From: an uncultured virus (IMG/VR IMGVR_UViG_3300021958_000055)
Taxonomy: Duplodnaviria; Heunggongvirae; Uroviricota; Caudoviricetes
Length of the DNA stretch: 64,000 bases
Reading direction: 5' to 3' (one strand)
IMG/VR virus record: IMGVR_UViG_3300021958_000055
In this document: piece by piece, positions 9,399-59,529 of the stretch
Position numbering within the stretch: the stretch's first letter is position 1
Layout: every line of letters starts with the position of its first letter
Position numbers and translations under genes: made by a program
Notes under the pieces: model-generated
Told to the model about the DNA's origin: nothing
Seen by the model: only the letters and a program-made list of their open reading frames with translations
Database searches by the model: none

Positions 9399-10403
9399 AT
9401 GTCTGACAAAAACCCATTACTGAATAGTAATTCAGTACAAGGTGCAGCAAGTTCGATTGAGGGATTAATAGACCCAAAGACGGCAACTATCAAACCTCAA
9501 GAGAAAGCAGCACCAGTTGAACAGAAAGAACCAGAAGAAGCGAAAGCAACTGAAGATAATCAAGAAGTTCAACAACAACCTGAAGAAAATCTTGAAAATA
9601 AAATTCAAGAAACTTTAGATGAAGAAGAAGCATCAGAAGACAATGCTGAAAGACAACAAACAACCGATTACCACCAAGTTAAAGTTAATGGTGAAGTAAT
9701 TGAAGTTGACCTTGAAGAATTAAAAGCAGGTTATCAGAAGGATGCAGACTATAGACGGAAAACAGAAGAAGTAGCTTTAGAGAAAAGAGAGTTATTAACT
9801 GAAAAAGACCGGCTAGCTAAGCAATATTCAACTAAGCTGGATGATTTAAATTCGCTTGTGTTGACTTTGAACGCTGAAGTAAACAACGATGTAAATGCCA
9901 AAGAACTAGATAGACTTTGGGATGAAGATCCAACTGAAGCTGCTAAGATTGATCGTAAAATCAGAAGAAGGAGAGAAACACTTTCTCAAGCTCAGAAGAA
10001 ATTAAGAGATCATCAACAAGCACAGTTTCAGGAAGTTCTAAAAGAGGAGCAAAAAAAGGTAACTATGAAGTTCCCTGAATTGCAAGATCCTGTAAAAGGA
10101 AACTCTCTAAGAACAGGCATGGTGAATTATTTATTGAAAAAAGGATTCTCTGAAAAAGATGTGTCCTCAGTTTATGATTCAAGAATGTTTGATGTGATCG
10201 TAGATGGAATGAAATATCAAGATAACAAAAAGTTGAAACCAACTTTAGTTAATAAGAAAGTCAAACCATCAAGAGTTGTTAGATCAGGTGTCAAAACAAC
10301 AAAAGCAGATGAGAATAGTCAGAATAGGTTGAATAGAATCAAAACGCTGAAGAAGTCAGGAAATCCAAAAGATGCAACTGATTTATTGATGCGTTATTTA
10401 TAA
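9399..10403 (+). CDS. capsid scaffolding protein, phage A
   Basis: acidic N-terminus, VKVNGE..EV.LEEL..GY....DY.RKT, coiled coil; precedes the capsid gene. Confidence 0.85.
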   Translation: MSDKNPLLNSNSVQGAASSIEGLIDPKTATIKPQEKAAPVEQKEPEEAKATEDNQEVQQQPEENLENKIQETLDEEEASEDNAERQQTTDYHQVKVNGEVIEVDLEELKAGYQKDADYRRKTEEVALEKRELLTEKDRLAKQYSTKLDDLNSLVLTLNAEVNNDVNAKELDRLWDEDPTEAAKIDRKIRRRRETLSQAQKKLRDHQQAQFQEVLKEEQKKVTMKFPELQDPVKGNSLRTGMVNYLLKKGFSEKDVSSVYDSRMFDVIVDGMKYQDNKKLKPTLVNKKVKPSRVVRSGVKTTKADENSQNRLNRIKTLKKSGNPKDATDLLMRYL

Positions 10404-10428
10404 ACTAATAACCTAACGGAGAAATACA

Positions 10429-11379
10429 ATGGCTGTATATCAAACATACCAAACAGTCGGAATAAGAGAAGACCTAGCGGACATTATTTATTCAATAAGT
10501 CCAACAGAAACTCCTTTTATGTCTGGCGTAGCTAAAACAAAAGCTACAAATACATCTCACCAATGGCAAACAGATGCTTTGGCTGATGTAGCAGCAAATG
10601 CTGCAGTAGAAGGTGCTGCAATAAGTTACCCATCTTTATCAGCAACAACTAAACTAACTAACTACACTCAAATATCTACAAAAGCGGTGCAAGTTTCAGG
10701 AACTAACGAAGCTGTAACTTCTGCTGGTAGAGCAAATGAGTTAGCTTACCAAGTAGCAAAATCTGCGAAAGAATTAAAAAGAGATATGGAAACAGCTCTT
10801 TTATCTAACGTAGCTGCTGCGGCTGGAGACGCTACAACTGCAAGAAAATTAGGCGGAGTTCAAACATGGATTTCATCTAACGTAGATGCAGGTTCTGGCG
10901 GATCTGGTGCTGGTGCTGGAGCTATCAGAACAGATGGAACGCAAAGAGCTTTCACAGAAGACCAATTAAAAGGTGTTCTAAGAAGCTGTTTTAACGAAGG
11001 CGGAAATCCAAACATGATTATGGTTGGTGCTTTCAATAAACAAAAACTATCTGGCTTCACAGGCGGATCAACTAGATTTGACCAAGCTGAAGACAGAAGA
11101 TTAGTTACTTCTATTGATGTATATGAAAGTGACTTCGGAACTTTATCCGTAGCACCTAATAGATTCATTAGAGGAGCTAACGCAACTGCTGCAAAAGTAG
11201 GTCAAGATGCTCTAGTATTAGAGATGGATATGTTTGCAGTATCTTTCTTAAGAGATTTCTCTCTACAGAATCCTGCTCAGACTGCTGATGCAGACCAAAG
11301 ATTCTTAGTAGCTGAATATACTCTTGAGTCAAGAAACGAACAAGCAAGTGGTGCTGTTTACGATTTAACAACATCATAA
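10429..11379 (+). CDS. major capsid protein, phage A
   Basis: G.REDL.D.IY.ISPTETPF ... HQWQTD ... N.TQI ... ELKRD.E pattern; position after scaffold. Confidence 0.92.
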   Translation: MAVYQTYQTVGIREDLADIIYSISPTETPFMSGVAKTKATNTSHQWQTDALADVAANAAVEGAAISYPSLSATTKLTNYTQISTKAVQVSGTNEAVTSAGRANELAYQVAKSAKELKRDMETALLSNVAAAAGDATTARKLGGVQTWISSNVDAGSGGSGAGAGAIRTDGTQRAFTEDQLKGVLRSCFNEGGNPNMIMVGAFNKQKLSGFTGGSTRFDQAEDRRLVTSIDVYESDFGTLSVAPNRFIRGANATAAKVGQDALVLEMDMFAVSFLRDFSLQNPAQTADADQRFLVAEYTLESRNEQASGAVYDLTTS

Positions 11380-11386
11380 TCTAATT

Positions 11387-11470
11387 GTGATTGGGGATGT
11401 AACCCTTAAAAACTACATCCCCATCACTTAACCCATGTTGAAGTCTTAGTAAGGTTATAGACGGAACGAC
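11387..11470 (+). ncRNA. two-hairpin kissing-loop RNA downstream of the capsid gene, phage A
   Basis: P1 11387-11427, P2 11437-11470, loop-loop CCTTA/TAAGG; covaries with 49869-49954. Confidence 0.75.
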
Positions 11471-11485
11471 AAACGGAGAAAAAAA

Positions 11486-11833
11486 ATGAGAACATTAAAC
11501 GATTATTTTATAACTGCTGAAATTGAAGATATTAGTACAGCTTCATCTACATTTGTTGCAGTACCTGATGGCGGAAAAGTAATAAAAATTATTACTGCTT
11601 TACAAGGTGCAATAACAGGTGATGATGCTGCATTAACTTTTGAAATCGGTGGAACTGCTATGACTAATGGCGGAATAACAGTTGCTTATGATGGTTCAGC
11701 TGCTGGAGATGTAGATACATCTGCACCGACTGCTGCTAACAGAGTAGAAGAAAATGGCACAATAGAGATGATTACCGATGGTGGATCTACTGGTGCTAAT
11801 AAATTACTTGTGACATTTGTTATAAGAAGATAA
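11486..11833 (+). CDS. putative minor capsid/decoration protein
   Basis: 115 aa, beta-rich, follows the capsid gene; paralog at 49968. Confidence 0.6.
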   Translation: MRTLNDYFITAEIEDISTASSTFVAVPDGGKVIKIITALQGAITGDDAALTFEIGGTAMTNGGITVAYDGSAAGDVDTSAPTAANRVEENGTIEMITDGGSTGANKLLVTFVIRR

Positions 11834-11840: not shown

Positions 11841-11872
11841 TTGGGGGTTCAGCCTAGCGGAAGTTCCCCCAA
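11841..11872 (+). terminator. GC-rich hairpin (terminator/attenuator-like)
   Basis: TTGGGGG...CCCCCAA; equivalent GGGGGTG-GCAA-CACCCCC hairpin at ~50323-50340; no U-tract. Confidence 0.4.
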
Positions 11873-44253: not shown

Positions 44254-45523
44254 AGAGGAAACTAAAGATATAGTTATTCCTTATACACCTCGTCCTTTAC
44301 AGAGAGAAGTACATAACAATCTTAAAAGATTTAATGTATTAGTTTGTCATCGTAGATTTGGTAAATCAGTATTATCGATTAACCAACTTATTAAAACAGC
44401 TATAGAAAAACCCATGCGTAAGTGTGCATTTATAGCACCAACATATAGACAAGGTAAATCTATTGCTTGGGAATATTTAAAAATTTATACAAAACCACTA
44501 ATGTATTTAGGTGGTAGTAAAAACGAAACAGAATTAAAAATAGAATTATTTAACGGATCTACGCTTCAAATATTTGGAGCTGACCACCCTGACTCATTAC
44601 GAGGTGTTGGGTTTCATGGAGTTGTGATGGACGAGTTTGCTATCATGGCACCTAGAACTTGGACTGAGATTATACGTCCAGCAGTTGCTGACACATTAGG
44701 ATGGGTAATGTTCATAGGAACTCCTATGGGACATAATCAGTTTTGGGAAGTTTATGATTTTGCACAACGAGGACAAAAGAACTGGTTTGCAAAAATGTAT
44801 CGAGCATCAGAAACAGGTGTAGTACCTGCTGAAGAATTAAAAGATGCTCAGTCTATAATGACTGAAGAACAATATAACCAAGAGTTTGAATGTTCTTTTA
44901 CAGCTGCTGTAAGTGGTAGTTATTATGGAAAACTAATAACCAAAGCTGATAACGAAAAAAGAATTGGGAGTATACCTGTTGAGGAACACGTTGGTGTTGA
45001 GACATGGTGGGATTTAGGGATCGGGGATTCGACAGCTATTTGGTTTATACAAAGAGTAGGTGAAGAAATTCACGTCATAGATTACTATGAAAACTCAGGT
45101 GAGTCTTTAGCTCATTATGCAGATGTCTTAGAAGATAAGAACTATGCTTATGAAAGACATATCGCACCTCATGATATTCAAGCAAGAGAGCTTGGAACTG
45201 GTAAATCTAGGTTAGAAGTATCTCAAGAACTAGGAATAGATTTTGAAGTAGCACCTAAATTAGAGGTTGATCATGGCATAGAATCTGTTAGGAATGCTTT
45301 ACCACATTGTTGGTTTGATAGAGAAAAATGTAAATTAGGTTTAGATGCATTAAGACAATATCGTAAACAATGGGATGAGAAGAACCAAGTTTTTAAAAAT
45401 AAACCTTTGCATGACTGGTGTTCACATGCAGCTGATGCGTTTAGATACGGATGCGTACATGATCCTATAGATACATCAGACTGGCAAAGACCCATAAATG
45501 TAGATTATAAATATATCGTATGA
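44213..45523 (+). CDS. terL: terminase large subunit, phage B
   Basis: HRRFGKS, VVMDE, GTPMG, WDLG, H.ADAFRY; start uncertain (44204 TTG or 44213 ATG). Confidence 0.95.
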   Translation: MAQSKSISNGETSKEETKDIVIPYTPRPLQREVHNNLKRFNVLVCHRRFGKSVLSINQLIKTAIEKPMRKCAFIAPTYRQGKSIAWEYLKIYTKPLMYLGGSKNETELKIELFNGSTLQIFGADHPDSLRGVGFHGVVMDEFAIMAPRTWTEIIRPAVADTLGWVMFIGTPMGHNQFWEVYDFAQRGQKNWFAKMYRASETGVVPAEELKDAQSIMTEEQYNQEFECSFTAAVSGSYYGKLITKADNEKRIGSIPVEEHVGVETWWDLGIGDSTAIWFIQRVGEEIHVIDYYENSGESLAHYADVLEDKNYAYERHIAPHDIQARELGTGKSRLEVSQELGIDFEVAPKLEVDHGIESVRNALPHCWFDREKCKLGLDALRQYRKQWDEKNQVFKNKPLHDWCSHAADAFRYGCVHDPIDTSDWQRPINVDYKYIV

Positions 45524-47670
45524 CAGAAGATCAAATTATATCAATATTAAATAGAGAGCTTAGAGCATCATCAGGTTACATTGGTGGTGAGATAGTTACA
45601 CGTAGAAGAAAATCATTAGAATATTACTTAGGTAAACCTTTTGGTAATGAACAAGAAGGTAGATCTCAAGTCGTTAGTACTGATGTTTCTGATACTATAG
45701 AATCTTTAATGCCTTCTCTTATGAAAATTTTTACAGCAGGAGATAATATCTTTCATTGTGAACCTGCTGGGCCTGAAGATGAAAAGGTAGCTAAACAAGC
45801 TAGTGATTATATTAACCATGTTTTCTATAAAGAGAACAGAGGTTTTTCTGCTATTTATACAGCGTTCAAAGATGCACTTGTTCAGAAGAATGGTATTCTA
45901 AAAGTATACTGGGATGATTCTGAAAAAACTACAAGAGAAGAATATAAAAAATTAACTGATGATGAATACAATCTTCTTATTGCAGACAAAGAAGTTTCAG
46001 TAACAGAACATAAAGAATACGAAGAAGAATTTGAAGATGACAATGGTAAGGTAATAGATAAAATAAAATTCCATGATGTTGTTATTCATAAAACTAGAAT
46101 GTATGGTCAAGTTAAAATTGATCCAATCCCACCTGAAGAATTTTTAATTGAACGTAGAGCTAAATCAATAGAATCAGCTAACTTTGTTTGTCATAGAGTT
46201 AATATGACTAGAACTGAATTAGTTGAAATGGGTTATGATAGAGATTTAGTTTATAACTTACCTACTGGTGATGCAGAATATTATTTAGAAGATAGACAAG
46301 TAAGATACCAAGATACAGATTTTTCTGCACCACAAGATAGAGGTGATAATTCTACAGACGAAGTTTTAATTCATGAATGTTATGTAAGATTAGATCTAAA
46401 TGGTGATGGTAAATCAGAACTATTAAAAATTTGTCTTGCAGGTACAGGAGCATATAGAATATTAGGTATGGACGAAATTGATTCAATACCTTTTGTTTCA
46501 ATGACACCAATTATTATGCCTCACAGATTCTATGGTAGATCTGTTTCTGAACTAATCGAAGATATACAATTAATTAAATCTACTGTTATGAGACAGATGT
46601 TAGATAATATGTATCTAACGAATAATAACAGAATAGCTATTCAAGATGGTCAAGTAGCTATGGATGACCTATTAACAAATAGACCAGGTGGTATCGTAAG
46701 AACTAAACAACCACCTGCTAATGTTATGCAGGTTATGTCAGCTCAACCTATTACAGAACAAGCATCAGGATTATTAAACTATTTAGATTCAGTAAGAGAA
46801 GCAAGATCAGGTGTTACAAAATCTTCACAAGGATTACAATCTGATTCTTTAAACACAGATACAGCTACAGGAATGAATCAAGTATTAACTCAATCTCAAA
46901 TGAGAATGGAGTTGATTGCAAGAACATTTGCTGAAACTGGTGTTAAAGATCTAGGTATTAAGATATTCGAATTACTTTGCAAATATCAGCAAAAAGAAAA
47001 ATTAGTTAGAATTAGAGGTGAGTTTGTTCCTATGACTCCATATGAATGGAGAGATAGAGTTAATCTTTCTGTTAAAGTAGGATTAGGTACAGGTTCAAAA
47101 GAACAACAACTTATCCTTCTTAATGGTATTTTACAAAGACAACTACAAGCTATACAACTACAACAGAATGTATATGGCCCAGTTGTTAATCTTAAAAATA
47201 TTTATTCTACATTACAAAAACTTGTAGAGAATGCAGGTCTTGGAAGTGTAGAACCATTCTTTATGGATCCTGAAGTAGGTGCTGCACAAATGCCACCACT
47301 TCCTCCTAAACCACCAACTGAGTTTGAGAAGGTATCTCTAGCACAAGTACAGGGTGAAAACCAAAGAGCTATATTAGATTCTGAAGTACAAATGAAGAAA
47401 TTAGAATCTTCATTAAGACAGAAACTATTAGACTTTGAGCTTCAAGTAAAAGAAATGGAGCTTAAATATGGTACTAAAATAAATGAGCTTGAAATGCGTA
47501 ACAGATCTATGATAGAACAACAACAAGTTAGACAATCAGGTGATTTGTTTAAAGAGATAATGAAAGGTCAAAAACAATTCTTCGATGGCAAAGGATCTAA
47601 ACAAACAGATTTCACAAGGGACGAAAGCCCAGCATCTACTGGACGATCCCCTAATGAAAGAGGCGTTTGA
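45520..47670 (+). CDS. portal protein, phage B
   Basis: paralog of 6890..9124. Confidence 0.88.
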   Translation: MTEDQIISILNRELRASSGYIGGEIVTRRRKSLEYYLGKPFGNEQEGRSQVVSTDVSDTIESLMPSLMKIFTAGDNIFHCEPAGPEDEKVAKQASDYINHVFYKENRGFSAIYTAFKDALVQKNGILKVYWDDSEKTTREEYKKLTDDEYNLLIADKEVSVTEHKEYEEEFEDDNGKVIDKIKFHDVVIHKTRMYGQVKIDPIPPEEFLIERRAKSIESANFVCHRVNMTRTELVEMGYDRDLVYNLPTGDAEYYLEDRQVRYQDTDFSAPQDRGDNSTDEVLIHECYVRLDLNGDGKSELLKICLAGTGAYRILGMDEIDSIPFVSMTPIIMPHRFYGRSVSELIEDIQLIKSTVMRQMLDNMYLTNNNRIAIQDGQVAMDDLLTNRPGGIVRTKQPPANVMQVMSAQPITEQASGLLNYLDSVREARSGVTKSSQGLQSDSLNTDTATGMNQVLTQSQMRMELIARTFAETGVKDLGIKIFELLCKYQQKEKLVRIRGEFVPMTPYEWRDRVNLSVKVGLGTGSKEQQLILLNGILQRQLQAIQLQQNVYGPVVNLKNIYSTLQKLVENAGLGSVEPFFMDPEVGAAQMPPLPPKPPTEFEKVSLAQVQGENQRAILDSEVQMKKLESSLRQKLLDFELQVKEMELKYGTKINELEMRNRSMIEQQQVRQSGDLFKEIMKGQKQFFDGKGSKQTDFTRDESPASTGRSPNERGV

Positions 47671-47854
47671 TTATTTAAAAACTCGTTATAGAGAAGAAAT
47701 ATTCAACACGTCTTATAATGATCACGATCAAAGACAAGTTCTTTGGATGGCCTATAATATGGTCGAAAAAATCAAAGGACATCTTGAGTCTGTGATGAAT
47801 GAAGGCAAACTAGCTGCCAAAGAGCTAGATCAACTACAAGACTTAACTAAGTAA
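47585..47854 (+). CDS. conserved small protein between portal and scaffold
   Basis: paralog of 9048..9344. Confidence 0.75.
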   Translation: MAKDLNKQISQGTKAQHLLDDPLMKEAFDYLKTRYREEIFNTSYNDHDQRQVLWMAYNMVEKIKGHLESVMNEGKLAAKELDQLQDLTK

Positions 47855-47867
47855 TTAGAAGTCTATT

Positions 47868-47891
47868 TCGCCAATCCCATTAAGGAAGCGA
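47868..47891 (+). promoter_or_regulatory. conserved RNA hairpin in the scaffold 5' UTR, phage B
   Basis: TCGC-CAA-TCC-CATTAA-GGA-A-GCGA. Confidence 0.7.
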
Positions 47892-47911
47892 TCAACCTAA
47901 AAGGAGAATCT

Positions 47912-48904
47912 ATGCAAGTAGATAAAACAGTACAAGGTGCTGCTGACAAAATATCAGGATTACTGAATCCTCAAGAAGGACAATCAGAACCTGAAAAAAA
48001 ACAGACAGAACCACAAGAGCAAACACAGGAAAAACCAGTTCAAGAAACTGCACCTGATGTTGTTGAAGAAGTTAGCCAAACCGAGACTGAGGAAGCTAAA
48101 CCTGAAACTGAAAGCTCTGAAATAACTGAGACAGAACAAACTGAACAACAAGAAATACAAGAACCTTCACTCCACCGAGTCAAAGTACAAGGTCAAGAGT
48201 TAGAGGTCAGCTTGGACGAATTGAAATCAGGTTATTCAAGAGACTCAGATTATAGACAAAAGACTCATGCTTTAGCTGAGGAAAGAAAAATCCTTGACGA
48301 ACAAAAGACAAGTCTTAGTCAAACGTATGACAGTAAGCTAAAAGAATTGAATGATTTAATTGGTGTTGCCAATACATATATCAGTCAATCATCTGATGTT
48401 GATCTTCCAAAATTATATGAAGAAGATCCTACTGCTGCTGCTAAAATAGATTTTCAAATGCGTCAGCAAAGAGAATCTTTTAACAAGTTAAGGCAACAAG
48501 CTGAAACTGTTAAAGCACAACAGTATAACCAATATCTAGATGAACAAAAAAAGTTAGCTGCAACTAAAATTCCAGAATTTAGTGATCCACAAAAATCAGT
48601 ACCATTCAGAAATCAGATGAGATCAACTCTTGCTGATTATGGATTTAATGATCAAGAAATTGGTTCACTAGCAGATCATAGATTCCTTATGGTTCTAAAA
48701 GATGCTATGGAATTTAAAAACCTTAGAAGCAAACCTGTTACTGCTAAAAAAGTAACAACAGCTCCGAAGGTAGTTAAATCAGGAACTCCTAAAATGGACG
48801 ATTCTAGACGTGCTTCTGTTAAACAAAAAATTGGTAGATTGAGAAAGTCAGGTAAACTGAACGATGCTCATTCTGCTATTCTTGAAATAATCTCAAAAAA
48901 ATAG
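47912..48904 (+). CDS. capsid scaffolding protein, phage B
   Basis: paralog of 9399..10403. Confidence 0.85.
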   Translation: MQVDKTVQGAADKISGLLNPQEGQSEPEKKQTEPQEQTQEKPVQETAPDVVEEVSQTETEEAKPETESSEITETEQTEQQEIQEPSLHRVKVQGQELEVSLDELKSGYSRDSDYRQKTHALAEERKILDEQKTSLSQTYDSKLKELNDLIGVANTYISQSSDVDLPKLYEEDPTAAAKIDFQMRQQRESFNKLRQQAETVKAQQYNQYLDEQKKLAATKIPEFSDPQKSVPFRNQMRSTLADYGFNDQEIGSLADHRFLMVLKDAMEFKNLRSKPVTAKKVTTAPKVVKSGTPKMDDSRRASVKQKIGRLRKSGKLNDAHSAILEIISKK

Positions 48905-48913
48905 GAAAATAAC

Positions 48914-49861
48914 ATGGCACAACCAACAAACACATTTGATACGTACGATGCAGTAGGTATCAGAGAAGATCTACAGGATGTTATTTACTCAATTTCTCCA
49001 ACTGAAACTCCTTTCATGAGTGCAGCTGCGAGAGAGCAAGTAAAAAATACATTCCACGAGTGGCAAACAGATTCATTAGCGGCTGCTGCAACTAACAATG
49101 CAGTAATCGAAGGTGATGAAGCTACTCTTGATGCATCAACTGCTACTACAAGAATCGGTAACTACACACAGATTATGGATAAGACTGTTGTTATTACTGG
49201 TACACAAGAAGCAGTAGACAAAGCTGGTAGAGCAAGTGAGCTTGCATACCAAATCGCTAAAAAATCTAAAGAGTTAAAAAGAGACATCGAGTCTACTTTA
49301 TTAACTAACCAAGCAAGAGCAGCTGGTAACTCATCAACTGCTAGAACATTTGCTTCTATCGGTGCTTGGATTGCAACGAACGATGACTTCGGTGCTAGTG
49401 GATCATCTCCAACAGCATCCGATGGTTCTGACGCTAGAAATGACGGAACTCAAAGAGCTTTAACTGAAGCTCAATTGAAAGGCGTTATTAAAAACTGTTG
49501 GAACGCAGGTGGTAACCCATCTGTAATCATGGTAGGCCCATTCAACAAACAGAAAATCTCAGGATTTACTGGTGGATCTACTAGATTCGATGCATCTGAA
49601 GATAAGACTTTATACACTTCAATCGATGTGTATTCATCTGACTTCGGTGATTTAGAAGTAGTACCTAACAGATTCTCTAGAGAAAGAGATGCTTTAGTCC
49701 TAGATATGGACTACTGGTCTGTAGGGTTCTTAAGAGACTTCACAATGCATGAACTTTCAAAAACTGGTGACTCAGAGAAAAGACAACTACTTGTTGAGCT
49801 TACTATGATCTCTAGAAATGAAGGTGCTTCAGGTGGAGTATTCGACTTAACAACTTCATAA
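48914..49861 (+). CDS. major capsid protein, phage B
   Basis: paralog of 10429..11379. Confidence 0.92.
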   Translation: MAQPTNTFDTYDAVGIREDLQDVIYSISPTETPFMSAAAREQVKNTFHEWQTDSLAAAATNNAVIEGDEATLDASTATTRIGNYTQIMDKTVVITGTQEAVDKAGRASELAYQIAKKSKELKRDIESTLLTNQARAAGNSSTARTFASIGAWIATNDDFGASGSSPTASDGSDARNDGTQRALTEAQLKGVIKNCWNAGGNPSVIMVGPFNKQKISGFTGGSTRFDASEDKTLYTSIDVYSSDFGDLEVVPNRFSRERDALVLDMDYWSVGFLRDFTMHELSKTGDSEKRQLLVELTMISRNEGASGGVFDLTTS

Positions 49862-49868
49862 TATATAA

Positions 49869-49954
49869 ATACTTGGGGGGAGTAATCCCAATATATACTT
49901 CCCCCAGTATCAATCTTGACTATGAAGTCTTATGGGATTATAGACGGAACGTAG
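49869..49954 (+). ncRNA. two-hairpin kissing-loop RNA downstream of the capsid gene, phage B
   Basis: P1 49869-49910, P2 49920-49954, loop-loop ATCCCA/TGGGAT. Confidence 0.75.
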
Positions 49955-49967
49955 AAGGAGAATAAAA

Positions 49968-50315
49968 ATGAGAACATTAAACGACTATTTTTTAACAGCA
50001 AAAGTTACTGACATTAGTACAGCAGGATCTACATTCGTAGCTGTACCTGACGGTGGTAATATTGTTAAAATTATAACAACAATTAAGAATGCTATTACAA
50101 CAGCTGATGCTGCTATAACATTTGAAATTGGTGGAACTGCCGTTACTAATGGTGCAATCACAGTTACACAATCAGGCTCTGCTGCTGGCGATGTTGATAC
50201 ATCTGTACCAACTGCTGCAAACAGAGTAGAAGAAGATGGAACTATCGAAATTATTTCTGATGGATCATCTGCAACTGCTTGTGAAATGATTGTTACATTC
50301 GTAATAAGAAGATAA
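49968..50315 (+). CDS. putative minor capsid/decoration protein
   Basis: paralog of 11486. Confidence 0.6.
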   Translation: MRTLNDYFLTAKVTDISTAGSTFVAVPDGGNIVKIITTIKNAITTADAAITFEIGGTAVTNGAITVTQSGSAAGDVDTSVPTAANRVEEDGTIEIISDGSSATACEMIVTFVIRR

Positions 50316-50357
50316 TTAATTAGGGGGTGGCAACACCCCCAACTAAAGGAGAAATAA

Positions 50358-50624
50358 ATGCACATAGCAATGAGACCAACAACAACAGAAAAATTAACAT
50401 CTACAGGTACATCATCTCAGACAGCTGCTTTTGCTGATAATATAGAATACGTTAGAGTAGTATCTGATGCTGCTGTTCATATTGAGTTTGGTGTTAATCC
50501 AACAGCAACAGCATCTACAATTTATGTACCAGCTGATGATATTGAATACTTCAAAGTTTCAGCAGGTGAAAAACTAGCTGCTATTGGTTCAGCAAATGTT
50601 TACGTAACTCAATTAAGTGAATAA
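50358..50624 (+). CDS. putative virion structural protein
   Basis: paralog of 11892. Confidence 0.65.
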   Translation: MHIAMRPTTTEKLTSTGTSSQTAAFADNIEYVRVVSDAAVHIEFGVNPTATASTIYVPADDIEYFKVSAGEKLAAIGSANVYVTQLSE

Positions 50625-50950
50625 TGAGTATACTGAGAGATCAGGAATCTGACGGAACTAAATACTTCGTAGAAGCTGATGGAAAAATAACAGTTAAAAG
50701 ATCACAAGACGTTAATCCTATTCTTCAAAAGAATAAAAGATTATATAACCTTAATGATGGTTATTCTCAAACAAAAGATATTAAACGTGTAGCTAGTATT
50801 CCAACTATGGTTTTAGAACTATGGGCTAGAGAATATAATGGAACTAATAATTGGTGGAGAATACCAAAAGAAGAAAGAACAAAGATTTTAAAGTTAAAAT
50901 TAAACAGTAGCGAATATCGTTATTTTAGAACAGCATCAGGAAGAATGTAA
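50624..50950 (+). CDS. conserved hypothetical protein (RVASIP family)
   Basis: paralog of 12295. Confidence 0.75.
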   Translation: MSILRDQESDGTKYFVEADGKITVKRSQDVNPILQKNKRLYNLNDGYSQTKDIKRVASIPTMVLELWAREYNGTNNWWRIPKEERTKILKLKLNSSEYRYFRTASGRM

Positions 50951-51615
50951 TGGCATTATCAACATATACAGAACTTAAATCATCAATAGCAAATTTCTTA
51001 AATAGATCAGATTTAACAACTGAGATACAAGATGATTTTATAAAACTTACTGAAGCTGATTTTAATGCTAAGCTACGTATAAGACAAATGGAACAGAATG
51101 ATGATGTTACAATTAATGCTGAAACAGTTGCAGTACCATCAGGATTTATTGCTGTAAGATCATTTCATATATTATCAGCTGATACTAAGTATCATTTAGA
51201 ATATATAACACCAGGAAATTTATTTGAAATCAAAGGAGGATCTACATCAGGTATGCCAAGAACATACACGATAGAGTCTGATAATGGAACAGAAAGTTTT
51301 AGATTTGCCCCACAACCTGACACAAGCTATACAGGAAAGCTTCAATACTATAAAGCTTTTGATGCTTTATCTGATAGCAATACAACTAATTACATTTTAT
51401 CTAGCCATCCTTCTATTTACTTATATGGCTCATTGTATCACGCAAGTAATTTCATCGGTGGTATCGATCCTAACCAAACGCAACAATGGCTAGGTATGTA
51501 TTCAGCATCTCTTGAGAGATGTGAGAATAACGATAGACAAGATTCATATGGATCTGCACCTGTTGTTCAAAGAACAGACGTAAGTACAGATCTATCATTC
51601 TATAGGAGAAAATAA
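50950..51615 (+). CDS. head-tail adaptor / tail tubular protein A-like
   Basis: paralog of 12630. Confidence 0.7.
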   Translation: MALSTYTELKSSIANFLNRSDLTTEIQDDFIKLTEADFNAKLRIRQMEQNDDVTINAETVAVPSGFIAVRSFHILSADTKYHLEYITPGNLFEIKGGSTSGMPRTYTIESDNGTESFRFAPQPDTSYTGKLQYYKAFDALSDSNTTNYILSSHPSIYLYGSLYHASNFIGGIDPNQTQQWLGMYSASLERCENNDRQDSYGSAPVVQRTDVSTDLSFYRRK

Positions 51616-53081
51616 TGCAGATACCTTTTGGAGAGTGGCTACCTGATCAACCTAAACATTTGAATCCAGGTGCTAACGTAGCAACAAATGTATATTATGC
51701 ATTAAATTCTTATAAAAGATTTCCTTCATTGGTAAGCTATAGTTCTAATAATATTGGAGCTGATGCTAGAGGTGGTGGATCATTTAGAGATAATGCTGGT
51801 AATGTATATAACTTTGTTGCAAAGAATACAGACATCTATCAATTAGATGGTGGTACATTTACTTCTAGAAAAGGATCTCTTACAGGTACAAATACAGACT
51901 ACTGGACATTTACACAGTTTGGTAATTATGTGATAGCAAGTAATGGTGTTGATGCACCTCAATATTATTTAATGGGAACATCAACTAATTTTGCTAATCT
52001 TTCAGCAATAGCAACATCTGGAACTGTACCTACATTTAGAGTTTCAGGTGTAGTTAGAGATTTTTTAATAACAGGTAATCAACCTACAAATCAAAATAGA
52101 ATACAATGGTCAGGTATCAATGACATTACTACTTGGTTAGCAGGAACTAAACAAGCTGATCAACAAGATCTACCAGGTTCAGGTGGTGAGATTGTACATA
52201 TAACTTCAGGCGAATATGGATATGTTTTTAGACAAAATCAAATCATTCGTATGGACTATGTGGGTGGTGCAACAGTATTTAGATTATCAGTTATATCTCC
52301 TAATAGAGGAGCTGTTTATGGTAAGACTGTAGCACAAGATAATAGACGAGTTTTCTTCTATGCTGATGACGGATTTTTTGAAATACAAGGAGATAGTGTT
52401 ATCTCAATAGGAGCTGAGAAAGTTAATAGATTTTTTGACCTTGATTTAAACAAGGCATTTGCTGATAGAATATGTGCAGCTGTAGACCCATTTAATCAAT
52501 TAGTTATGTGGCTTTATCCATCAGCACAAAATACTAATAATACAACTGGTATTTGTGATAGAATTATCATATATAATTATGCTACTAAAAAGTGGTCTCT
52601 AGCAGAAGCTAATGCTAGTTTTATATTTAGCCAGTTTGTAGGAGCTTATACAGTAGAGCTTATGGATATTATCTCTCAAAACCTTGAGAATATTAATATA
52701 GCTTTAGATACTGATTTTTGGTCAGGTGGACAAAGGTTTTTAGGAGCTATAAATAACTCTTACGAAGCTGCAATTTTCAGTGGAACTTCTAATGAATCTG
52801 AGATAGAGACTTCAGAAGTTGAGATATTTCCTGGTCATAGATCTTCTATAACTGGTGTTAGACCAATAGTAGATGCTCAAGCAACTGTAACTATTAAAAC
52901 TAGAGATAGACTTGCAGATACAGAAACAGAATCTAGCTCAGCGACTATGACAAATAGTGGTATTAATCCTGTAAGACAATCAGGAAGATACTTTAGAGCA
53001 AATGTCAAAGTACCAAGTGGTACGATATTTAATCATGGTCAAGGGATAGATATAACATTTGTTAAAGCAGGTTTAAGATAA
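51615..53081 (+). CDS. tail nozzle / DNA stabilisation protein
   Basis: paralog of 13315. Confidence 0.65.
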   Translation: MQIPFGEWLPDQPKHLNPGANVATNVYYALNSYKRFPSLVSYSSNNIGADARGGGSFRDNAGNVYNFVAKNTDIYQLDGGTFTSRKGSLTGTNTDYWTFTQFGNYVIASNGVDAPQYYLMGTSTNFANLSAIATSGTVPTFRVSGVVRDFLITGNQPTNQNRIQWSGINDITTWLAGTKQADQQDLPGSGGEIVHITSGEYGYVFRQNQIIRMDYVGGATVFRLSVISPNRGAVYGKTVAQDNRRVFFYADDGFFEIQGDSVISIGAEKVNRFFDLDLNKAFADRICAAVDPFNQLVMWLYPSAQNTNNTTGICDRIIIYNYATKKWSLAEANASFIFSQFVGAYTVELMDIISQNLENINIALDTDFWSGGQRFLGAINNSYEAAIFSGTSNESEIETSEVEIFPGHRSSITGVRPIVDAQATVTIKTRDRLADTETESSSATMTNSGINPVRQSGRYFRANVKVPSGTIFNHGQGIDITFVKAGLR

Positions 53082-53170
53082 TGAAATTTATTTTAGGTTT
53101 AATAGAAAAATATTCATCTAAGTTAAATGTTTGGGCTTGGAATAAAAGATGGAATAAACGTGACAGATAG
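53081..53170 (+). CDS. 29-aa Trp-rich micro-protein (not in the ORF track)
   Basis: MKFILGLIEKYSSKLNVWAWNKRWNKRDR; TAATG-coupled; absent from the first module. Confidence 0.5.
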   Translation: MKFILGLIEKYSSKLNVWAWNKRWNKRDR

Positions 53171-53309
53171 AACAGATATAGATAACGTAAGATATAGTTT
53201 TGAGACACAAGAGTTTTTTCAAAGACAAATTGAAGAAGCTATTAACACATTAATTAACGAAAAAAATACAGAAAATAATAAAGCATATGCTTGGTTTATA
53301 GGAGAATAA
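53160..53309 (+). CDS. 49-aa conserved protein (GTG start)
   Basis: homolog of 14778..14927. Confidence 0.75.
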   Translation: MTDRTDIDNVRYSFETQEFFQRQIEEAINTLINEKNTENNKAYAWFIGE

Positions 53310-53310
53310 A

Positions 53311-54942
53311 ATGGCAGGTATAAAAGATTATAGTACAACAGCAGCAAGTAATACTTCAGTAGGAGGTGTTTCTATAGCTGAAGGTATGTTACCTTCAAAT
53401 ATTAATAATGCATTTAGAGCTATTACTGCTGATATTAGAGAATGGTTTAATGATTCACAATGGGTAGAATATGGTGATGGTGATGGAGCATTTACAGCTG
53501 CATACGCATCTTCAACTTCTTTTACAATTGCAGGAACTGATGTTACATCTTTCTATCATGCTGGTAGAAGAATTAAATTAACTGCAACAACTCCAGGTAC
53601 AATTTTTGGAACAATATCTAGTTCTTCATTTTCTACAAACACAACAGTAAATGTAACTTGGGATAGTGGATCTTTATCTAATGAAGCAATCTCAAATGTA
53701 TATGTAGGTATTTTATCTAAAACTAATGATGCTATTCCAACAGGTATTGGAGCAACAAAAATTGCTGATGGTTCAGTATCTGATACAGAGTTTCAACATC
53801 TTAATGGTGTTACTTCAGCTATTCAAACACAATTAAATGCTAAACAAGCAACTATTACTGGATCTGCTACAACAATAGATACAGAGTCTTTAACAGCTAA
53901 TAGAGCTGTAATATCTAACGGATCTCAAAAGATTGCAGTATCAGCTACAACAGATACTGAATTAGGATATTTATCAGGAACTACATCTGCTGTTCAAACT
54001 CAATTAGATGCAAAAAATGTAAAAGCAAATAATTTAAGTGATGTTGCTTCAGCTTCAACAGCAAGAACAAACTTAGGTTTAGCTATAGGAAGTGATGTTC
54101 AAGCATATGATGCACAGTTAGCTGATATTGCAGGATTAACTCCAACAGACAGTAATTTTATTGTAGGAGATGGATCTAATTTTACAACAGAAACTGGAGC
54201 AACTGCTAGAACTTCTTTAGGACTTGGAACGATTGCAACTCAAGATGCTAATAGTGTTGCTATAACAGGTGGATCAGTAACAGGTATGTCTGCACCTTCA
54301 TCAGCATCAGATGTAACAACAAAAAGTTATGTAGATGATTTAGTTGCAGGACTTAAAACTAGAATTATTACAAGAGTAGCAACAACAGCAAACGTAAACT
54401 TATCAAATGCTTTAGAAAATGGTGATACTTTAGATGGAATTTCACTAGCAACAGGTAATAAAGTTTTAGTTAAAAATCAAACAGATGCTACAGAAAATGG
54501 TATTTATTTAGTTCCAGCAAGTGGTGCAGCAAGTAGAGATCCAGATTTTAATACAGTAGATGAATTAGCTGGTCAGCTTGTTATCATACAAGAAGGAACA
54601 ACAAACGAAGATACAATATTTTTATGTACAACAGATACTGGTGGTAGCATTGGTAGTGTAAATATTACATTTACACAAGTACAACCTCAGTTTACTGGAA
54701 CAGTAAGTTCAGTAGCTGTAGCAGACGCAGGATCATCAGAATTTACAGTAACAGGTTCTCCAATAACTACATCAGGAACAATTAATTTAGCAGTTAATAG
54801 TATATCAGCAGCTAAAATTGGTAATGGAGACGTAGATAATACAGAATTAAGTTATGTAAATGGAGTAACTTCAGCAATACAAACACAAATAGATAATAAA
54901 GCTGGAGCAGGATTTGCGATTGCAATGGCGATAGCATTATAA
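53311..54942 (+). CDS. tail fibre protein
   Basis: N-terminal ~230 aa diverged from 14928..16559, remainder identical. Confidence 0.75.
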   Translation: MAGIKDYSTTAASNTSVGGVSIAEGMLPSNINNAFRAITADIREWFNDSQWVEYGDGDGAFTAAYASSTSFTIAGTDVTSFYHAGRRIKLTATTPGTIFGTISSSSFSTNTTVNVTWDSGSLSNEAISNVYVGILSKTNDAIPTGIGATKIADGSVSDTEFQHLNGVTSAIQTQLNAKQATITGSATTIDTESLTANRAVISNGSQKIAVSATTDTELGYLSGTTSAVQTQLDAKNVKANNLSDVASASTARTNLGLAIGSDVQAYDAQLADIAGLTPTDSNFIVGDGSNFTTETGATARTSLGLGTIATQDANSVAITGGSVTGMSAPSSASDVTTKSYVDDLVAGLKTRIITRVATTANVNLSNALENGDTLDGISLATGNKVLVKNQTDATENGIYLVPASGAASRDPDFNTVDELAGQLVIIQEGTTNEDTIFLCTTDTGGSIGSVNITFTQVQPQFTGTVSSVAVADAGSSEFTVTGSPITTSGTINLAVNSISAAKIGNGDVDNTELSYVNGVTSAIQTQIDNKAGAGFAIAMAIAL

Positions 54943-54955
54943 TAAAAGGAGTAAT

Positions 54956-55282
54956 ATGGCACAAAACTTTAGACGATACACAAGCAATGATGTAGGAGCA
55001 TCAGCTGCAACATTATTCACAGCAAACAGTTATGATACTGTTGTTGGAATATCTGTAGCAAATGTAACAGCATCAGCAGTGAACGCATCTGTTTACATTA
55101 ATGATGCATCAAATGATATTTATCTTATCAAAGATGCACCTATACCTGCTGGTTCAGCTTTACAAGTATTAGATGGTGGAGCTAAATTTGTAGTTCAATC
55201 AGGTGATGCTTTAAAAGTTGTTTCTGATACAGCATCTTCATTAGATGTTTGGGTATCAACAGTAGACGATATTAGTTCATAA
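54956..55282 (+). CDS. tail-associated structural protein
   Basis: identical to 16573..16899. Confidence 0.7.
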   Translation: MAQNFRRYTSNDVGASAATLFTANSYDTVVGISVANVTASAVNASVYINDASNDIYLIKDAPIPAGSALQVLDGGAKFVVQSGDALKVVSDTASSLDVWVSTVDDISS

Positions 55283-55294
55283 GGAGAATAACAA

Positions 55295-56026
55295 ATGGGA
55301 TATGTAGGTAAAAAACCAACAGCAGCACCTTTAACTTCAAGTGATGTTACAGATGGAATTATATCTAATGCAAAATTAGCACAAGATATTATTTCTGCTG
55401 AAACTGCTTTAACTTCTGAACCAGCTGATACAGATGAGTTTATTTTATCTGATGCTGGAACTTTAAAAAGAATTGATTACAGTTTAATTAAAGGTGGTGG
55501 AGGATTAGTTCCTTTATCACACACAACTATTTCAAGTTCTACAGCCAGTGCTGCATTTACTTCAGGCATTGATAGCACTTATGATGCTTATAAATTTGTT
55601 CTTTCAGGTGTAAGACCTGTAACAGATGACGTAGATTTTCATTTATTATTTTCGGTTGATGGTGGATCAAGTTATCTTAGTAGTAGTTATAAGTATTCAG
55701 TAACATCAAGAGATTCAGGTACAAATGTAGAAGATGGAAGCAGTGATACTGCTAGTTTTATATTACTTACAGGTGATGATGTTGGAAGTGAATCTGATGA
55801 AAGTTTTAATGCAGAAATGGTTTTATATCATCCATCAAATACTACTTTTCATAAGCAAATAGCTTTTCAAGGTGTTTATTACGATCATGCTGCTTTACCT
55901 AATTACTTTTTAGGAATGGGAGCAAATTCAGGTTCTGTTGCGGCAGTAAATGGTATTAAATTTCAATTTGCTAGTGGCAATATAGCAGAAGGTAGTTTTA
56001 CAATGTACGGAATAGCAAAAGCATAG
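55295..56026 (+). CDS. tail fibre tip/adhesin family paralog 1
   Basis: identical to 16912..17643. Confidence 0.65.
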   Translation: MGYVGKKPTAAPLTSSDVTDGIISNAKLAQDIISAETALTSEPADTDEFILSDAGTLKRIDYSLIKGGGGLVPLSHTTISSSTASAAFTSGIDSTYDAYKFVLSGVRPVTDDVDFHLLFSVDGGSSYLSSSYKYSVTSRDSGTNVEDGSSDTASFILLTGDDVGSESDESFNAEMVLYHPSNTTFHKQIAFQGVYYDHAALPNYFLGMGANSGSVAAVNGIKFQFASGNIAEGSFTMYGIAKA

Positions 56027-56036
56027 GAGATAAATT

Positions 56037-57017
56037 ATGGCATATATAGGTAGAGAACCAACAATAGGAAACTTTCAAGTCTGCGATGCTATTAGTGTAG
56101 TTAATGGTCAAGCTGCATATACGATGCAAGTATCATCTGTAAATGTAGTACCTGAAACAGCTAACCACATGATCGTATCTTTAAATGGTGTTATTCAAGC
56201 ACCTGGTAGTTCTTATACTGTATCAGGTTCAACGATTACATTTGCATCGAACCTTGTAACAGGTGATGTTATAGACTTTATTCATATACTAGGATCAGTT
56301 CTTGATCTTGGTGTACCAAGCGATGACACAGTAACAGCAGCTAAAATATCTTCTAATGCTGTGACAGGTGCTAAATTAAATACAGATGTTATATCAGCTC
56401 AAACTGCTTTGGCTACTGCACCTGATGATACTGATGAGTTTTTAGTTAGTGATGCTGGGGTTTTAAAAAGAATTGACTATTCACTTATTAAAGGTGGTGG
56501 ACAATGGGAATTTATTTCTGAACTAACAGGTTCTTCATCAACTTCGACACTAGATTTTACAACCTTATCTACTGACTATAAAGATTTTTGTTTTTCAATG
56601 CAAAATCTGCATCCTGAAAGTGATAATGTAAGAGTATATATGAGAGTATTTACTGGTACTGGTGGATCACAGGCAATTGATAGTGGTGGTAATTACGGAT
56701 ATGCTGGAATAGTAAGATTTGATAGCACAACCACAGGTAATGGTGAATCACAAAATCAAATATATATTACTGACCTAGTAGGAAATGCCGATACGGAAAA
56801 TGCTGCAGGAGAAGTTTTTTTATACAATCCACATGAAACAACATTTCATAAACTTATAAAATCACATTCTGTTACTATGAGAAATGATAGTGTTGTTGGT
56901 ATTGGTAATTACGCTGGTAAATATAATAGTACTGTAGCAGTTACTGGTGTTAGATTTTATTTTTCTGCTGGTGAAATAAGTGGCAAAATAGCAATGTACG
57001 GCAGAAAACGATCATAG
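56037..57017 (+). CDS. tail fibre tip/adhesin family paralog 2
   Basis: identical to 17654..18634 except KYNSTV vs KYSNTG. Confidence 0.65.
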   Translation: MAYIGREPTIGNFQVCDAISVVNGQAAYTMQVSSVNVVPETANHMIVSLNGVIQAPGSSYTVSGSTITFASNLVTGDVIDFIHILGSVLDLGVPSDDTVTAAKISSNAVTGAKLNTDVISAQTALATAPDDTDEFLVSDAGVLKRIDYSLIKGGGQWEFISELTGSSSTSTLDFTTLSTDYKDFCFSMQNLHPESDNVRVYMRVFTGTGGSQAIDSGGNYGYAGIVRFDSTTTGNGESQNQIYITDLVGNADTENAAGEVFLYNPHETTFHKLIKSHSVTMRNDSVVGIGNYAGKYNSTVAVTGVRFYFSAGEISGKIAMYGRKRS

Positions 57018-57026
57018 GAGTAATCA

Positions 57027-57626
57027 ATGGCTCTTAACTTTGCTAACAACAATTCCTTATCAGCAATCACAGCAATACCAGCTAGTATTAGTGGTGGTGG
57101 ATTAAATTTAATATCTACACAGACAGCTAGTAGTAGTGCTAATTTATCTTTTACAAGTGGAATAAACAGTACGTACAAGGAATATATTTTTAAGTTTTAT
57201 AATATTCACCCATCAGCAACTTCTAATTTAACTTTTCAAGGTAGCACAAATAATGGCAGTTCTTATGGAGTTACTATTACCTCATCATTCTTTCAAGCTG
57301 AACATTCTGAAGCTGGAACAAATCCAGCATTAGGTTATCAAACATCAAGCGATTTAGCACAATCAACTGCATTTCAAAGAATATTTAGTAGTGTAAGCAC
57401 AAATGCTGATGATAGCGGAAGTGGAACTTTACACTTGTTTGAACCATCAAGCGACACATTTGTGAAGCATTTTATATCAACATCAAGCAATGTTGCTAGT
57501 GCTTATGAACAAAATTCATATATGGCAGGATATTTTAATTCTACGTCTGCAATAAATGCCATTCAATTTAAAATGTCATCAGGCAATATAGATTCAGGAG
57601 TTATAAAATTATATGGCGTTAGTTAA
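57027..57626 (+). CDS. tail fibre tip/adhesin family paralog 3
   Basis: homolog of 18645. Confidence 0.65.
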   Translation: MALNFANNNSLSAITAIPASISGGGLNLISTQTASSSANLSFTSGINSTYKEYIFKFYNIHPSATSNLTFQGSTNNGSSYGVTITSSFFQAEHSEAGTNPALGYQTSSDLAQSTAFQRIFSSVSTNADDSGSGTLHLFEPSSDTFVKHFISTSSNVASAYEQNSYMAGYFNSTSAINAIQFKMSSGNIDSGVIKLYGVS

Positions 57627-58227
57627 ATACAATAACAATTCTATAAGTGCTATTACTGAAACAGGTTTAGCAACAGGTTCATTAGTTTTAATTAAAACTC
57701 AAACTGCATCAGGTGATACTGCTGTTGATTTTACTCATGGAACAAATGACGTAGTATTTGATGGAACATATAACACTTATGTTTTTAAATTTATTAATAT
57801 TCATCCATCTACTGAAAACATTGGTTTCAGTTATAATTTTAGTACAGATGGTCAAGCAACTGCAGCTGTTAAAACAACTGTTGCTTGGAGATCATTTCAT
57901 AATGAAAGTGGAAGTGGTGGAGTATTAGATTATCAATCTGCTAAAGATGTAGCAAATGCGGCTGGAGATCAACCTATTACTTGGGATATGGAAAGTGATG
58001 ATGATGCTTCTGTTTCAGGTGAACTTTTTGTTTTTTCACCTGCTTCAACTACGTTTGTTAAACATTTTATGCATCAATCAAATGGTATACATTCAAACCC
58101 AGCTTGTTTTACAAATTTTTCTGCTGGATATGTTAATGTTACGGCAGCAGTTAATTCTGTTAGATTTTTAACAACATCAAATACATTTGATGGAACAATT
58201 AAACTATATGGATTAAAAGAAAGTTAA
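57613..58227 (+). CDS. tail fibre tip/adhesin family paralog 4
   Basis: same N-terminus as 19237, divergent domain. Confidence 0.65.
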   Translation: MALVKYNNNSISAITETGLATGSLVLIKTQTASGDTAVDFTHGTNDVVFDGTYNTYVFKFINIHPSTENIGFSYNFSTDGQATAAVKTTVAWRSFHNESGSGGVLDYQSAKDVANAAGDQPITWDMESDDDASVSGELFVFSPASTTFVKHFMHQSNGIHSNPACFTNFSAGYVNVTAAVNSVRFLTTSNTFDGTIKLYGLKES

Positions 58228-58228
58228 G

Positions 58229-58834: not shown

Positions 58835-58867
58835 TTATGATAATAACAAACCAACAAGGAGAACAAT

Positions 58868-59164
58868 ATGCCTAGATATAAAATGGTAAATGGTGAACGT
58901 ATTCAGTTCACAGCAGAAGAAGAAGCAGCTAGAGATGCTGAAGAAGCAGCTTGGGCTGATGGTGCTAAAGATAGATCAATGGTTAATCTAAGAGCAAAAA
59001 GAAATAATTTGCTTAAAGAAACAGATCACTATGGTTTATCTGATGTAACTATGTCTGCTGATATGGCAACATACAGACAAAATCTTAGAGATTTGCCTGG
59101 TACTGTTACTGATGAAAATACTGCTGCTGAAGTTGATGCTATCACATTTCCAACAAAACCATAA
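58868..59164 (+). CDS. tail fibre assembly chaperone
   Basis: near-identical to 20491..20787. Confidence 0.8.
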   Translation: MPRYKMVNGERIQFTAEEEAARDAEEAAWADGAKDRSMVNLRAKRNNLLKETDHYGLSDVTMSADMATYRQNLRDLPGTVTDENTAAEVDAITFPTKP

Positions 59165-59505: not shown

Positions 59506-59529
59506 CAAAGATAAGATATTAGTGTATTT

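Follow-up and report, generated by a model that had tools for sequence, protein, structure and literature searches.

The DNA of an uncultured virus (IMG/VR record IMGVR_UViG_3300021958_000055), of which a stretch of 64,000 nucleotides (nt) was analysed as a whole (hereafter the window, 64 kb), contains two structural modules, A and B, and in each of them the major capsid gene is separated by a spacer of 106 nt from a gene for a protein of 115 amino acids (aa). Both spacers carry a pair of hairpins, which are named here element A and element B after their modules, and the question raised by this locus is what kind of RNA is formed there and what it does between these two genes. As for its kind, the conclusion is well supported that the two elements belong to a new family of RNAs whose general kind is known, namely the structured intercistronic elements of phage mRNA, situated in the slot after the capsid gene.

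The fold in the two modules and among relatives

Both elements are located on the + strand (A, 11387-11470; B, 49869-49954) and consist, in this order, of a first hairpin, P1, with the loop L1, a linker of 9 nt and a second hairpin, P2, with the loop L2. P1 of element A starts 7 nt past the stop codon of the capsid gene, and the distance between the end of P2 and the Shine-Dalgarno sequence (SD) of the 115-aa gene is 4 nt in A and 0 nt in B. The same two-hairpin fold in both modules, ending a few nucleotides before that SD, had been described in a first-pass annotation made from the letters of the window, and it is confirmed here by the sequence. P2 is interrupted by an internal loop, in which AA faces GGAA, with G-C closing pairs on both sides.

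Folding z-scores on the + strand were -3.1 for element A and -2.8 for element B, and the opposite strand of A gave -1.6. The core pattern of P2 occurs exactly 2 times in the 64 kb, once per phage module, against 0.11 occurrences expected, and a covariance model of the whole element, built from relatives, gave strong matches in the window at A and B only (92.9 bits, E 2e-20, and 77.9 bits, E 9e-17).

Relatives were retrieved by four routes: with the exact A/B-type core pattern of P2 in IMG/VR (77 loci), with the 115-aa protein (the best 80 of 293 relatives), with a looser pattern composed of TGAAG, gap, CGGAAC, gap and gene start (at least 120 loci; 21 loci of this set were discarded as chance matches in unrelated, mostly GC-rich contexts), and again with the 115-aa protein, which gave three contigs in prokaryote genome bins. 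The pooled set comprised 144 distinct elements in 246 locus instances, some contigs being represented repeatedly. The elements with long loops were aligned (77 elements, 75 distinct; 26 annotated pairs and 1884 stem cells), and 94.1% of the 1884 cells were found to pair, compared with 77.5 +/- 0.6% after shuffling of the 3' partners (0/500) and with 41-50% after sliding of the partners by 1-3 columns. Double changes were present at 17 of the 26 pairs, in 332 cells; for P1 they were present at 10 of 11 pairs among the 75 distinct relatives, and the P1 pairs G13-C42 to G16-C39 were almost invariant. When P2 was taken from all classes (70 distinct), 97.9% of the cells paired, compared with 73.5% after shuffling (0/500) and 32-43% after sliding. 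The ratio of G-U to A-C was 99:7 and 65:4, and the structure therefore belongs to the + strand, that is, to the strand of the mRNA.

Since two of the retrieval routes had used the motif itself, its invariance was checked on the protein-retrieved loci alone. The motif TGAAG...CGGAAC was exact in 77 of the 79 assessable loci of this kind (40 distinct spacers), and one exception, L145 (1402-1503), which has CAGAAC instead of CGGAAC, was the sole variant altered in the invariant loop. The other exception, L149, was the one close relative lacking P2 altogether. The stems flanking the AA/GGAA loop vary, while the 11-nt core motif is near-invariant. The inner stem GTCT-TA/TA-t-AGAC, which the first-pass annotation had also taken to be invariant, is so among the nearest classes only and covaries across the family.

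Table 1. Coordinates of the two elements and of the genes on either side of them (MFE, minimum free energy; ORF, open reading frame; R2, covariance model of P2 only)
Feature	Position	Strand	Basis or remark
Major capsid gene, module A, 316 aa	10429..11379	+	PHROG phrog_1328 major head protein, E 1e-98
P1 of element A, 14 base pairs (bp), GC-rich	11387-11401 / 11414-11427	+	sequence and MFE fold; bulged T 11392
Loop L1 of element A, 12 nt	11402-11413	+	sequence
L1 segment pairing with L2, element A	11400..11408	+	anchored pair table, permutation test
Linker between P1 and P2, single-stranded, element A	11428..11436	+	sequence, fold
P2 of element A	11437..11470	+	sequence; 47.7-bit match to R2
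Outer stem of P2, element A, GTTG/CGAC	11437-11440 / 11467-11470	+
Internal loop of P2, element A, AA facing GGAA	11441-42 / 11463-66	+
Inner stem of P2, element A	11443-48 / 11456-62	+	bulged T 11458
Loop L2 of element A	11449-55	+
SD GGAG (11475-78) and start codon (11486-88) of the 115-aa gene, module A	11475..11488	+
115-aa gene, module A	11486..11833	+	predicted 8-stranded beta jelly-roll
Major capsid gene, module B, 315 aa	48914..49861	+	ORF list
P1 of element B, 15 bp	49869-49884 / 49896-49910	+	sequence, MFE fold; bulged T 49874
Loop L1 of element B	49885-49895	+
L1 segment pairing with L2, element B	49883..49890	+	8-bp Watson-Crick run
P2 of element B, outer stem CTATG/CGTAG	49920..49954	+	sequence, fold; 49.6-bit R2 match
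Internal loop of P2, element B, AA facing GGAA	49925-26 / 49946-49	+
Inner stem of P2, element B	49927-32 / 49939-45	+
Loop L2 of element B, TGGGAT	49933-38	+
SD AAGGAG (49955-60) and 115-aa gene (49968-50315), module B	49955..50315	+	product 73% identical to that of A

Loop pairing and its substitutes

For comparison of the two loops, L1 was anchored where the 5' strand of P1 ends and L2 where the inner 3' strand of P2 begins. Anchored in this way, they pair in register across 5-10 positions with many different sequences, such as TAACCT../..AGGTTA, TAACCTC/GGGGTTA, ACCTC/GAGGT, TCTCC/GGAGA and TCTCCTT/AAGGAGA, and further TAACCTAT/ATAGGTTA, TAACCTTGTT/AATAAGGTTA, TAATCTTA/TAAGATTA and TAATCTAA/TTAGATTA. 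At the fourth loop position C-G and U-A are completely linked, in three stem backgrounds, and in one element (L047) the pairing is imperfect, one pair being broken. The mean best Watson-Crick run of the 51 distinct loop haplotypes was 6.33, compared with 5.39 +/- 0.14 for permuted partners (0/2000) and 4.03 for shuffled L2 letters (0/2000). The linker (TAACC or TAATC in class 1) was also tried as an alternative partner of L2 and was rejected, with a mean best run of 3.39 against the 6.33 obtained for L1.

The complementarity and covariation that had been claimed for the loops of the two modules, as CCTTA/TAAGG in A and ATCCCA/TGGGAT in B, are thus upheld by the permutations. In element A, CCTTA (11404-08) pairs with TAAGG (11450-54), or TAACC (11400-04) with GGTTA (11453-57), these two alternative 5-bp registers being due to an extra C. 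In element B, the pairing of ATCCCA (49885-90) with TGGGAT (49933-38) reaches 8 bp as TAATCCCA/TGGGATTA, provided that P1 and the inner stem of P2 each open their top two pairs. In the kissing elements, the 5' part of L1 pairs with the 3' part of L2, the pairing segment of L1 runs on from the 5' strand of P1, and the remainder of L1 is A-rich. Judged from the order of these segments, the arrangement would be an H-type pseudoknot, the third loop of which contains half of P2.

Among further homologs the complementarity of the loops held in part: it persists, with covariation, in 77 of the 144 distinct elements, and it is absent from the short-loop classes, with the isolated phage HTVC106P included, and from 19 elements in which the loop matches the linker. 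The short-P1 class, in which HTVC106P falls, makes up 48 of the 67 non-kissing elements. In 36 of these 48 the loop of P1 is a GNRA-type tetraloop (GAAA, GCAA or GUAA, closed by A-U), and P2 of this class is a tiny hairpin, whose outer stem is lengthened and has a 2-nt bulge. The third class, of 19 elements, has GUAUC in L2 and GAUAC in the linker (19/19), and a loop-linker pseudoknot, a candidate on the grounds of this complementarity, may replace the kiss there; as GUAUC/GAUAC never varies, it represents conservation and not covariation. P2, with its AA/GGAA loop, is present in every class and sits immediately upstream of the SD, which CGGAAC precedes by a median of 0, 4 and 12 nt in the three classes. 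With the covariance model of the whole element, weak matches (15-38 bits) were obtained in the short classes where they were expected, and none in relatives with a terminator only.

The 115-aa proteins from carriers of different RNA classes (L078-L157) are 84-86% identical to that of module A, and the periphery of the RNA therefore either changes much faster than the protein or has been exchanged between lineages. Since the kiss, the candidate linker pairing and the mostly GNRA-capped P1 interchange, the global fold is suggested as the selected feature; tertiary contacts that are swapped around a fixed core are typical where the three-dimensional shape of an RNA is its function.

If the likeness of A and B came from common descent of a hairpin-rich spacer and nothing else, the element would have no selected function. 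The carriers are fairly close relatives, with downstream proteins 70-93% identical, and kinship alone can beat column shuffles in the absence of structure. Such an explanation is nevertheless extremely unlikely, as the slid-partner controls preserve relatedness and yet drop to 32-50% paired, compensatory changes amount to the 332 cells given above, the pairing of the loops survives full replacement of their sequences (TCTCC/GGAGA, ATCCCA/TGGGAT and AACCT/AGGTT), and the RNA differs between the classes far more than the flanking protein does.

Proposed role and its alternatives

For the role of the element, we favour, with a probability of about 40%, the reading that it acts in cis in the late polycistronic mRNA and sets the expression of the cement-like 115-aa gene relative to that of the capsid gene, with P1 as a stabiliser or attenuator and P2 as an operator. 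P1 would have descended from an intrinsic terminator and would serve mainly as a 3' stabiliser or as a weak attenuator of the abundant capsid message. P2 would be an operator that is read through its invariant AA/GGAA loop by a trans-acting factor, most simply a phage structural protein, e.g. the unassembled capsid or cement protein, and the factor, once bound next to the ribosome-binding site, would tune initiation. The loop-loop pairing, or whatever substitutes for it in a given class, would lock both helices into one compact domain.

The origin proposed for P1 was examined in phages with related capsids, which are Venkman and three Manatee Spring phages (43-50% identity) and also PhiCHU (Bruynoghevirus). 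A plain GC hairpin follows the capsid gene in all five of them, with a T-rich tail in 4/5, and the gene downstream of this hairpin differs. Distant carriers of the small gene (L418 and L419) have the capsid gene, a GC hairpin with a T-run, the SD and the gene, and no P2, and in a close variant (L252) P1 is a perfect hairpin followed by TTTTAAT. Given these terminators in the same slot of relatives, P1 appears to derive from a terminator located after the capsid gene. In the window it has the GC-rich hairpin of a terminator (14-15 bp, with a G4-6/C4-6 block); it lacks a U-tract when at least 5 T in 8 nt are demanded, none being found downstream of P1 of element A, and it does not appear in the list of the terminator scan. 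The mean number of T in the 8 nt after P1 was 2.7, 3.4 and 2.4 in the kissing class, the short class and class 5, respectively. Compared with an intrinsic terminator or a hairpin that stabilises the message past the capsid gene, of which canonical versions occupy this slot in the Manatee Spring phages, PhiCHU and L418, P1 is alike in its slot, its richness in GC and its closeness to the stop codon, whereas it differs in the window by a loop of 11-12 nt, a basal extension with a bulged U, the lack of a U-tract and its base pairing to a second conserved domain, P2.

The same slot could be used for the control of elongation, either by an RNA that acts on RNA polymerase, as the put RNAs of phage HK022 do, or by a terminator/antiterminator pair that sets the passage beyond the capsid gene. 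This is unlikely: neither P1 nor P2 is followed by a U-tract in the window, no competing pairing of the mutually exclusive kind was found, the linker being a poor partner of L2, and the kiss forms only once the polymerase is past P1. What such control has in its favour is that the slot is a terminator slot in relatives, that an RNA with two hairpins lies within a late operon, and that, in the portion of its description that was available, no polymerase of its own was identified for HTVC106P and reliance on the host was presumed (10.1101/2019.12.14.876532).

A stability or processing element that needs no trans-acting regulator is possible, if doubtful; its fold would stop exonucleases and keep RNase E and Rho from reaching the gap. 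P1 would then end a long-lived capsid message, P2 would cap the 5' side of the downstream message, and AA/GGAA would make a tertiary contact within the molecule, which could dock, for instance, in the conserved G-C block of P1. The T-phi hairpin of phage T7 and the intercistronic hairpins of Rhodobacter puf are functional parallels of a stabilising hairpin after the capsid gene. A GC hairpin in the post-capsid slot is general among relatives, a second GC hairpin after the 115-aa gene brackets each cistron with hairpins, the four-pair block of P1 is almost invariant, and the interchangeable tertiary contacts suggest selection on the global fold. However, an 11-nt invariant motif is unnecessary for a hairpin that confers stability, it is left unexplained why P2 keeps so close to the SD, the docking of AA/GGAA into P1 is purely conjectural, and the depth step in the RNA-library contigs is unusable for this purpose.

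These contigs were assembled from three RNA libraries and bridge the element (X1, 11219-11474; X10, 11095-11610; X3, 11022-11491), so that the element is present in RNA preparations as one piece, unless the contigs are DNA carry-over. As only assembled contigs were at hand, their word depth, which is higher over the capsid gene, their gaps and their ends are not interpretable. A joint at 11383-11481 that 'skips 97' was considered as a deletion and rejected, as it comes from B-type relatives with a different spacer.

The operator that we prefer for P2 was compared with the translational operators of phages, for which the gene 32 pseudoknot and the regA targets of T4 and the coat operator of MS2 serve as examples. 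The element is like them in being structured, in having a sequence-specific core and in lying directly 5' of the ribosome-binding site (class medians 0-12 nt), and unlike them in that its core is an internal loop and not a hairpin loop or an unstructured tract; no likeness in sequence was seen. By inspection against consensus sequences only, none of K-turn, loop E and tetraloop-receptor fitted AA/GGAA.

Among the known families no counterpart was found. Rfam 15 gave 0 matches at the gathering score in the whole window, only the chance-level matches mir-1545 and snR32 on element A at E<=10, and 0 matches at E<=1 in 12 loci of all classes, and this, together with the covariation of stems and loops on the mRNA strand, bears out the earlier description of a selected, pseudoknotted cis-element that cannot be assigned to a known family. 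The same annotation had pointed to Mu-gpT-DE (RF03012), a conserved RNA structure located after a phage major head gene, for which we know of no function. Its model (53 positions, gathering score 49 bits) matched neither element A at E<=10 nor the 12 loci at E<=1. The only match in the whole HTVC106P genome, of 15.6 bits, is on the hairpin after the 115-aa gene, and such weak matches are common, since matches of RF03012 at E<=10 were present in 13 of 14 control genomes. The likeness to Mu-gpT-DE is one of position only, the element also being downstream of a major head gene, and the differences are the length (53 model positions against ~85-100 nt here) and the capsid protein, which is here of the phrog_1328 type, a head protein family that we take to differ from Mu gpT. 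The term gpT had 0 occurrences in the main texts of PMC2864571 and PMC5737381, and no description of the element was found in the literature on pelagiphage RNA motifs, capsid-linked kissing loops and intercistronic stem-loops.

Kissing aptamers and ribozymes, with L2-L3 of the purine riboswitch and the peripheral loops of the hammerhead as comparators, resemble the element in that its two hairpin loops pair and covary and that the contact is swapped in some lineages with the core kept; the element differs in having no three-way junction or closing helix, P1 being outside the outer stem of P2. If the element were a small self-cleaving ribozyme of a new class, or some other processing device made of RNA alone, the late mRNA would be severed between the genes for the capsid and cement proteins; AA/GGAA would be the catalytic core, and the kiss, the linker pseudoknot or the GNRA-capped hairpin would hold the shape. 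A short invariant internal loop between freely covarying helices, peripheral tertiary contacts that differ by class, and an element that is phage-borne and intercistronic would suit such a device. It is distinctly unlikely all the same, as no Rfam model matched, the self-cleaving ribozyme families presumably being among the models scanned, the RNA-library contigs, which cannot show ends, span the element intact, and a 2 x 4 internal loop is very small for a candidate active site.

Very unlikely, too, is a riboswitch, in which a small molecule or an ion bound by the fold alters initiation at the adjoining ribosome-binding site. Kissing loops and a conserved internal loop beside an SD do recall small aptamers, and riboswitches are used by phages of streamlined marine hosts according to the available part of PMC9004378, but no Rfam riboswitch model matched, no expression platform or alternative sequestering the SD was seen in the folds, the downstream gene is structural and not metabolic, and no bacterial copy was found in the 154 genomes searched. 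With R2, only the phage copy was found in the three bins carrying the element (G001-G003), and in 151 genomes of the order to which G001, the alphaproteobacterial single-cell genome, belongs, that copy and two weak matches (E 0.03 and 0.09) were obtained, the contexts of which are unlike the element, one being in sequence that reads as a ribosomal-protein gene. These 154 genomes are a sample whose completeness is not reported, and a host counterpart is accordingly 'not found' and not 'absent'. A pattern scan of IMG/VR without the downstream gene gave at least 121 rows, 3 of which passed the stem filter (2 known family members and 1 GC-rich chance match), and it is thus uninformative on P2 before other genes.

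Several observations weigh against the favoured reading of a cis-element that sets cement-like relative to capsid expression. The SD is not substantially sequestered in the predicted folds of A and B (that of A is unpaired in the centroid fold, and the MFE fold pairs its first two G with CC 11433-34), so that repression would have to be steric. Without a U-tract at P1 in the window, attenuation by P1 is without direct support. The invariance of AA/GGAA could equally be that of an RNA-RNA tertiary contact or of catalysis, the trans-acting factor of P2 is hypothetical, and no RNA-binding protein was among the listed structural matches of the jelly-roll of the 115-aa protein. Of the 144 distinct elements, 67 lack the kiss (mean best run 3.3), and L149 retains the 115-aa gene with a plain hairpin only and no P2, from which it follows that P2 is dispensable in at least one lineage.

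Two other candidates were tried and rejected. Coding or recoding would extend the capsid protein of A by 10 codons through stop read-through or by 19 in the +1 frame, neither of which is kept in B. A sigma-70 promoter in P2 (TTGAAG ... TATAGA) would have a 12-nt spacer, and no promoter-like site of the + strand was listed at 10178-11599.

Phages, neighbouring genes and meaning

The nearest isolate is Pelagibacter phage HTVC106P, with 78.7% DNA identity over this stretch and, for module A, 91% identity in the capsid protein and 86% in the 115-aa protein, and it is the only isolate with the 115-aa gene among 50,697 phage records. The phages are therefore of the HTVC106P type, and the label HTVC010P-like, which the first-pass annotation had used, is incorrect. 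In the part of the source that was available, HTVC106P represents a group of its own with a global distribution; a distant relationship links its capsid module to that of Bruynoghevirus, and it has no identified replication genes (10.1101/2019.12.14.876532). The two structural modules are syntenic, each with portal, scaffold and major capsid genes followed by the 115-aa gene. They are situated at 6890-28346 and 45520-63998, on the same strand and ~38.6 kb apart, with ORF sizes matching gene by gene, and may represent either two genomes joined in one record or a tandem arrangement.

No Pfam or PHROG family covers the 115-aa protein, and a profile search of PDB sequences gave a best match of only E 1.9. 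The protein is abundant: it forms 1556 clusters at 90% identity, and at 50% there are 1342 representatives. Its domain also occurs at the C-terminus or in 2-3 tandem copies of proteins of up to 1113 aa, one larger protein with such a domain also having pectate-lyase-like and E1_FCCH barrel domains. The structure predicted from an alignment of 45 sequences was an eight-stranded beta jelly-roll with a predicted local distance difference test (pLDDT) score of 95.7, which was closest to phage cement proteins, and a language-model look-up gave the cement family as a weak lead (0.79). Going by this model, the protein is likely a capsid cement or decoration protein.

A second GC-rich hairpin is present between the 115-aa gene and the next gene in both modules (11841-11872 and 50323-50340). 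In relatives it is two-tiered, with a conserved apex C-UAG-CG and covarying pairs in the upper stem, and in module B it is simple, with a GCAA tetraloop. The element and the 115-aa gene were also found together on contigs (L405, L406 and L407) in three bins, namely an uncultured alphaproteobacterial single-cell genome, a 'Rickettsiales' metagenome-assembled genome and a Marinamargulisbacteria single-cell genome; these contigs could be prophages, infecting phages or binning carry-over.

The architecture of the element, with its interchangeable tertiary contacts, is unusual, and the swapping of these contacts around a fixed core makes it a good candidate for structural and biochemical work, for which L145 (CAGAAC) and L149 (no P2) are natural 'mutants' of interest. 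To our knowledge, almost nothing is known of the control of late gene expression in such phages of SAR11. According to the available part of their description, the hosts of the HTVC106P-type phages are SAR11, the most abundant bacteria of the sea, and the phages occur worldwide (10.1101/2019.12.14.876532). In these phages the element lies at the very place where the proportion of capsid protein to a capsid-accessory protein might be adjusted. Should its core be read by a protein, the element would serve as an assembly-feedback operator; should the RNA act alone, it may be a new ribozyme or a nuclease-resistant fold.

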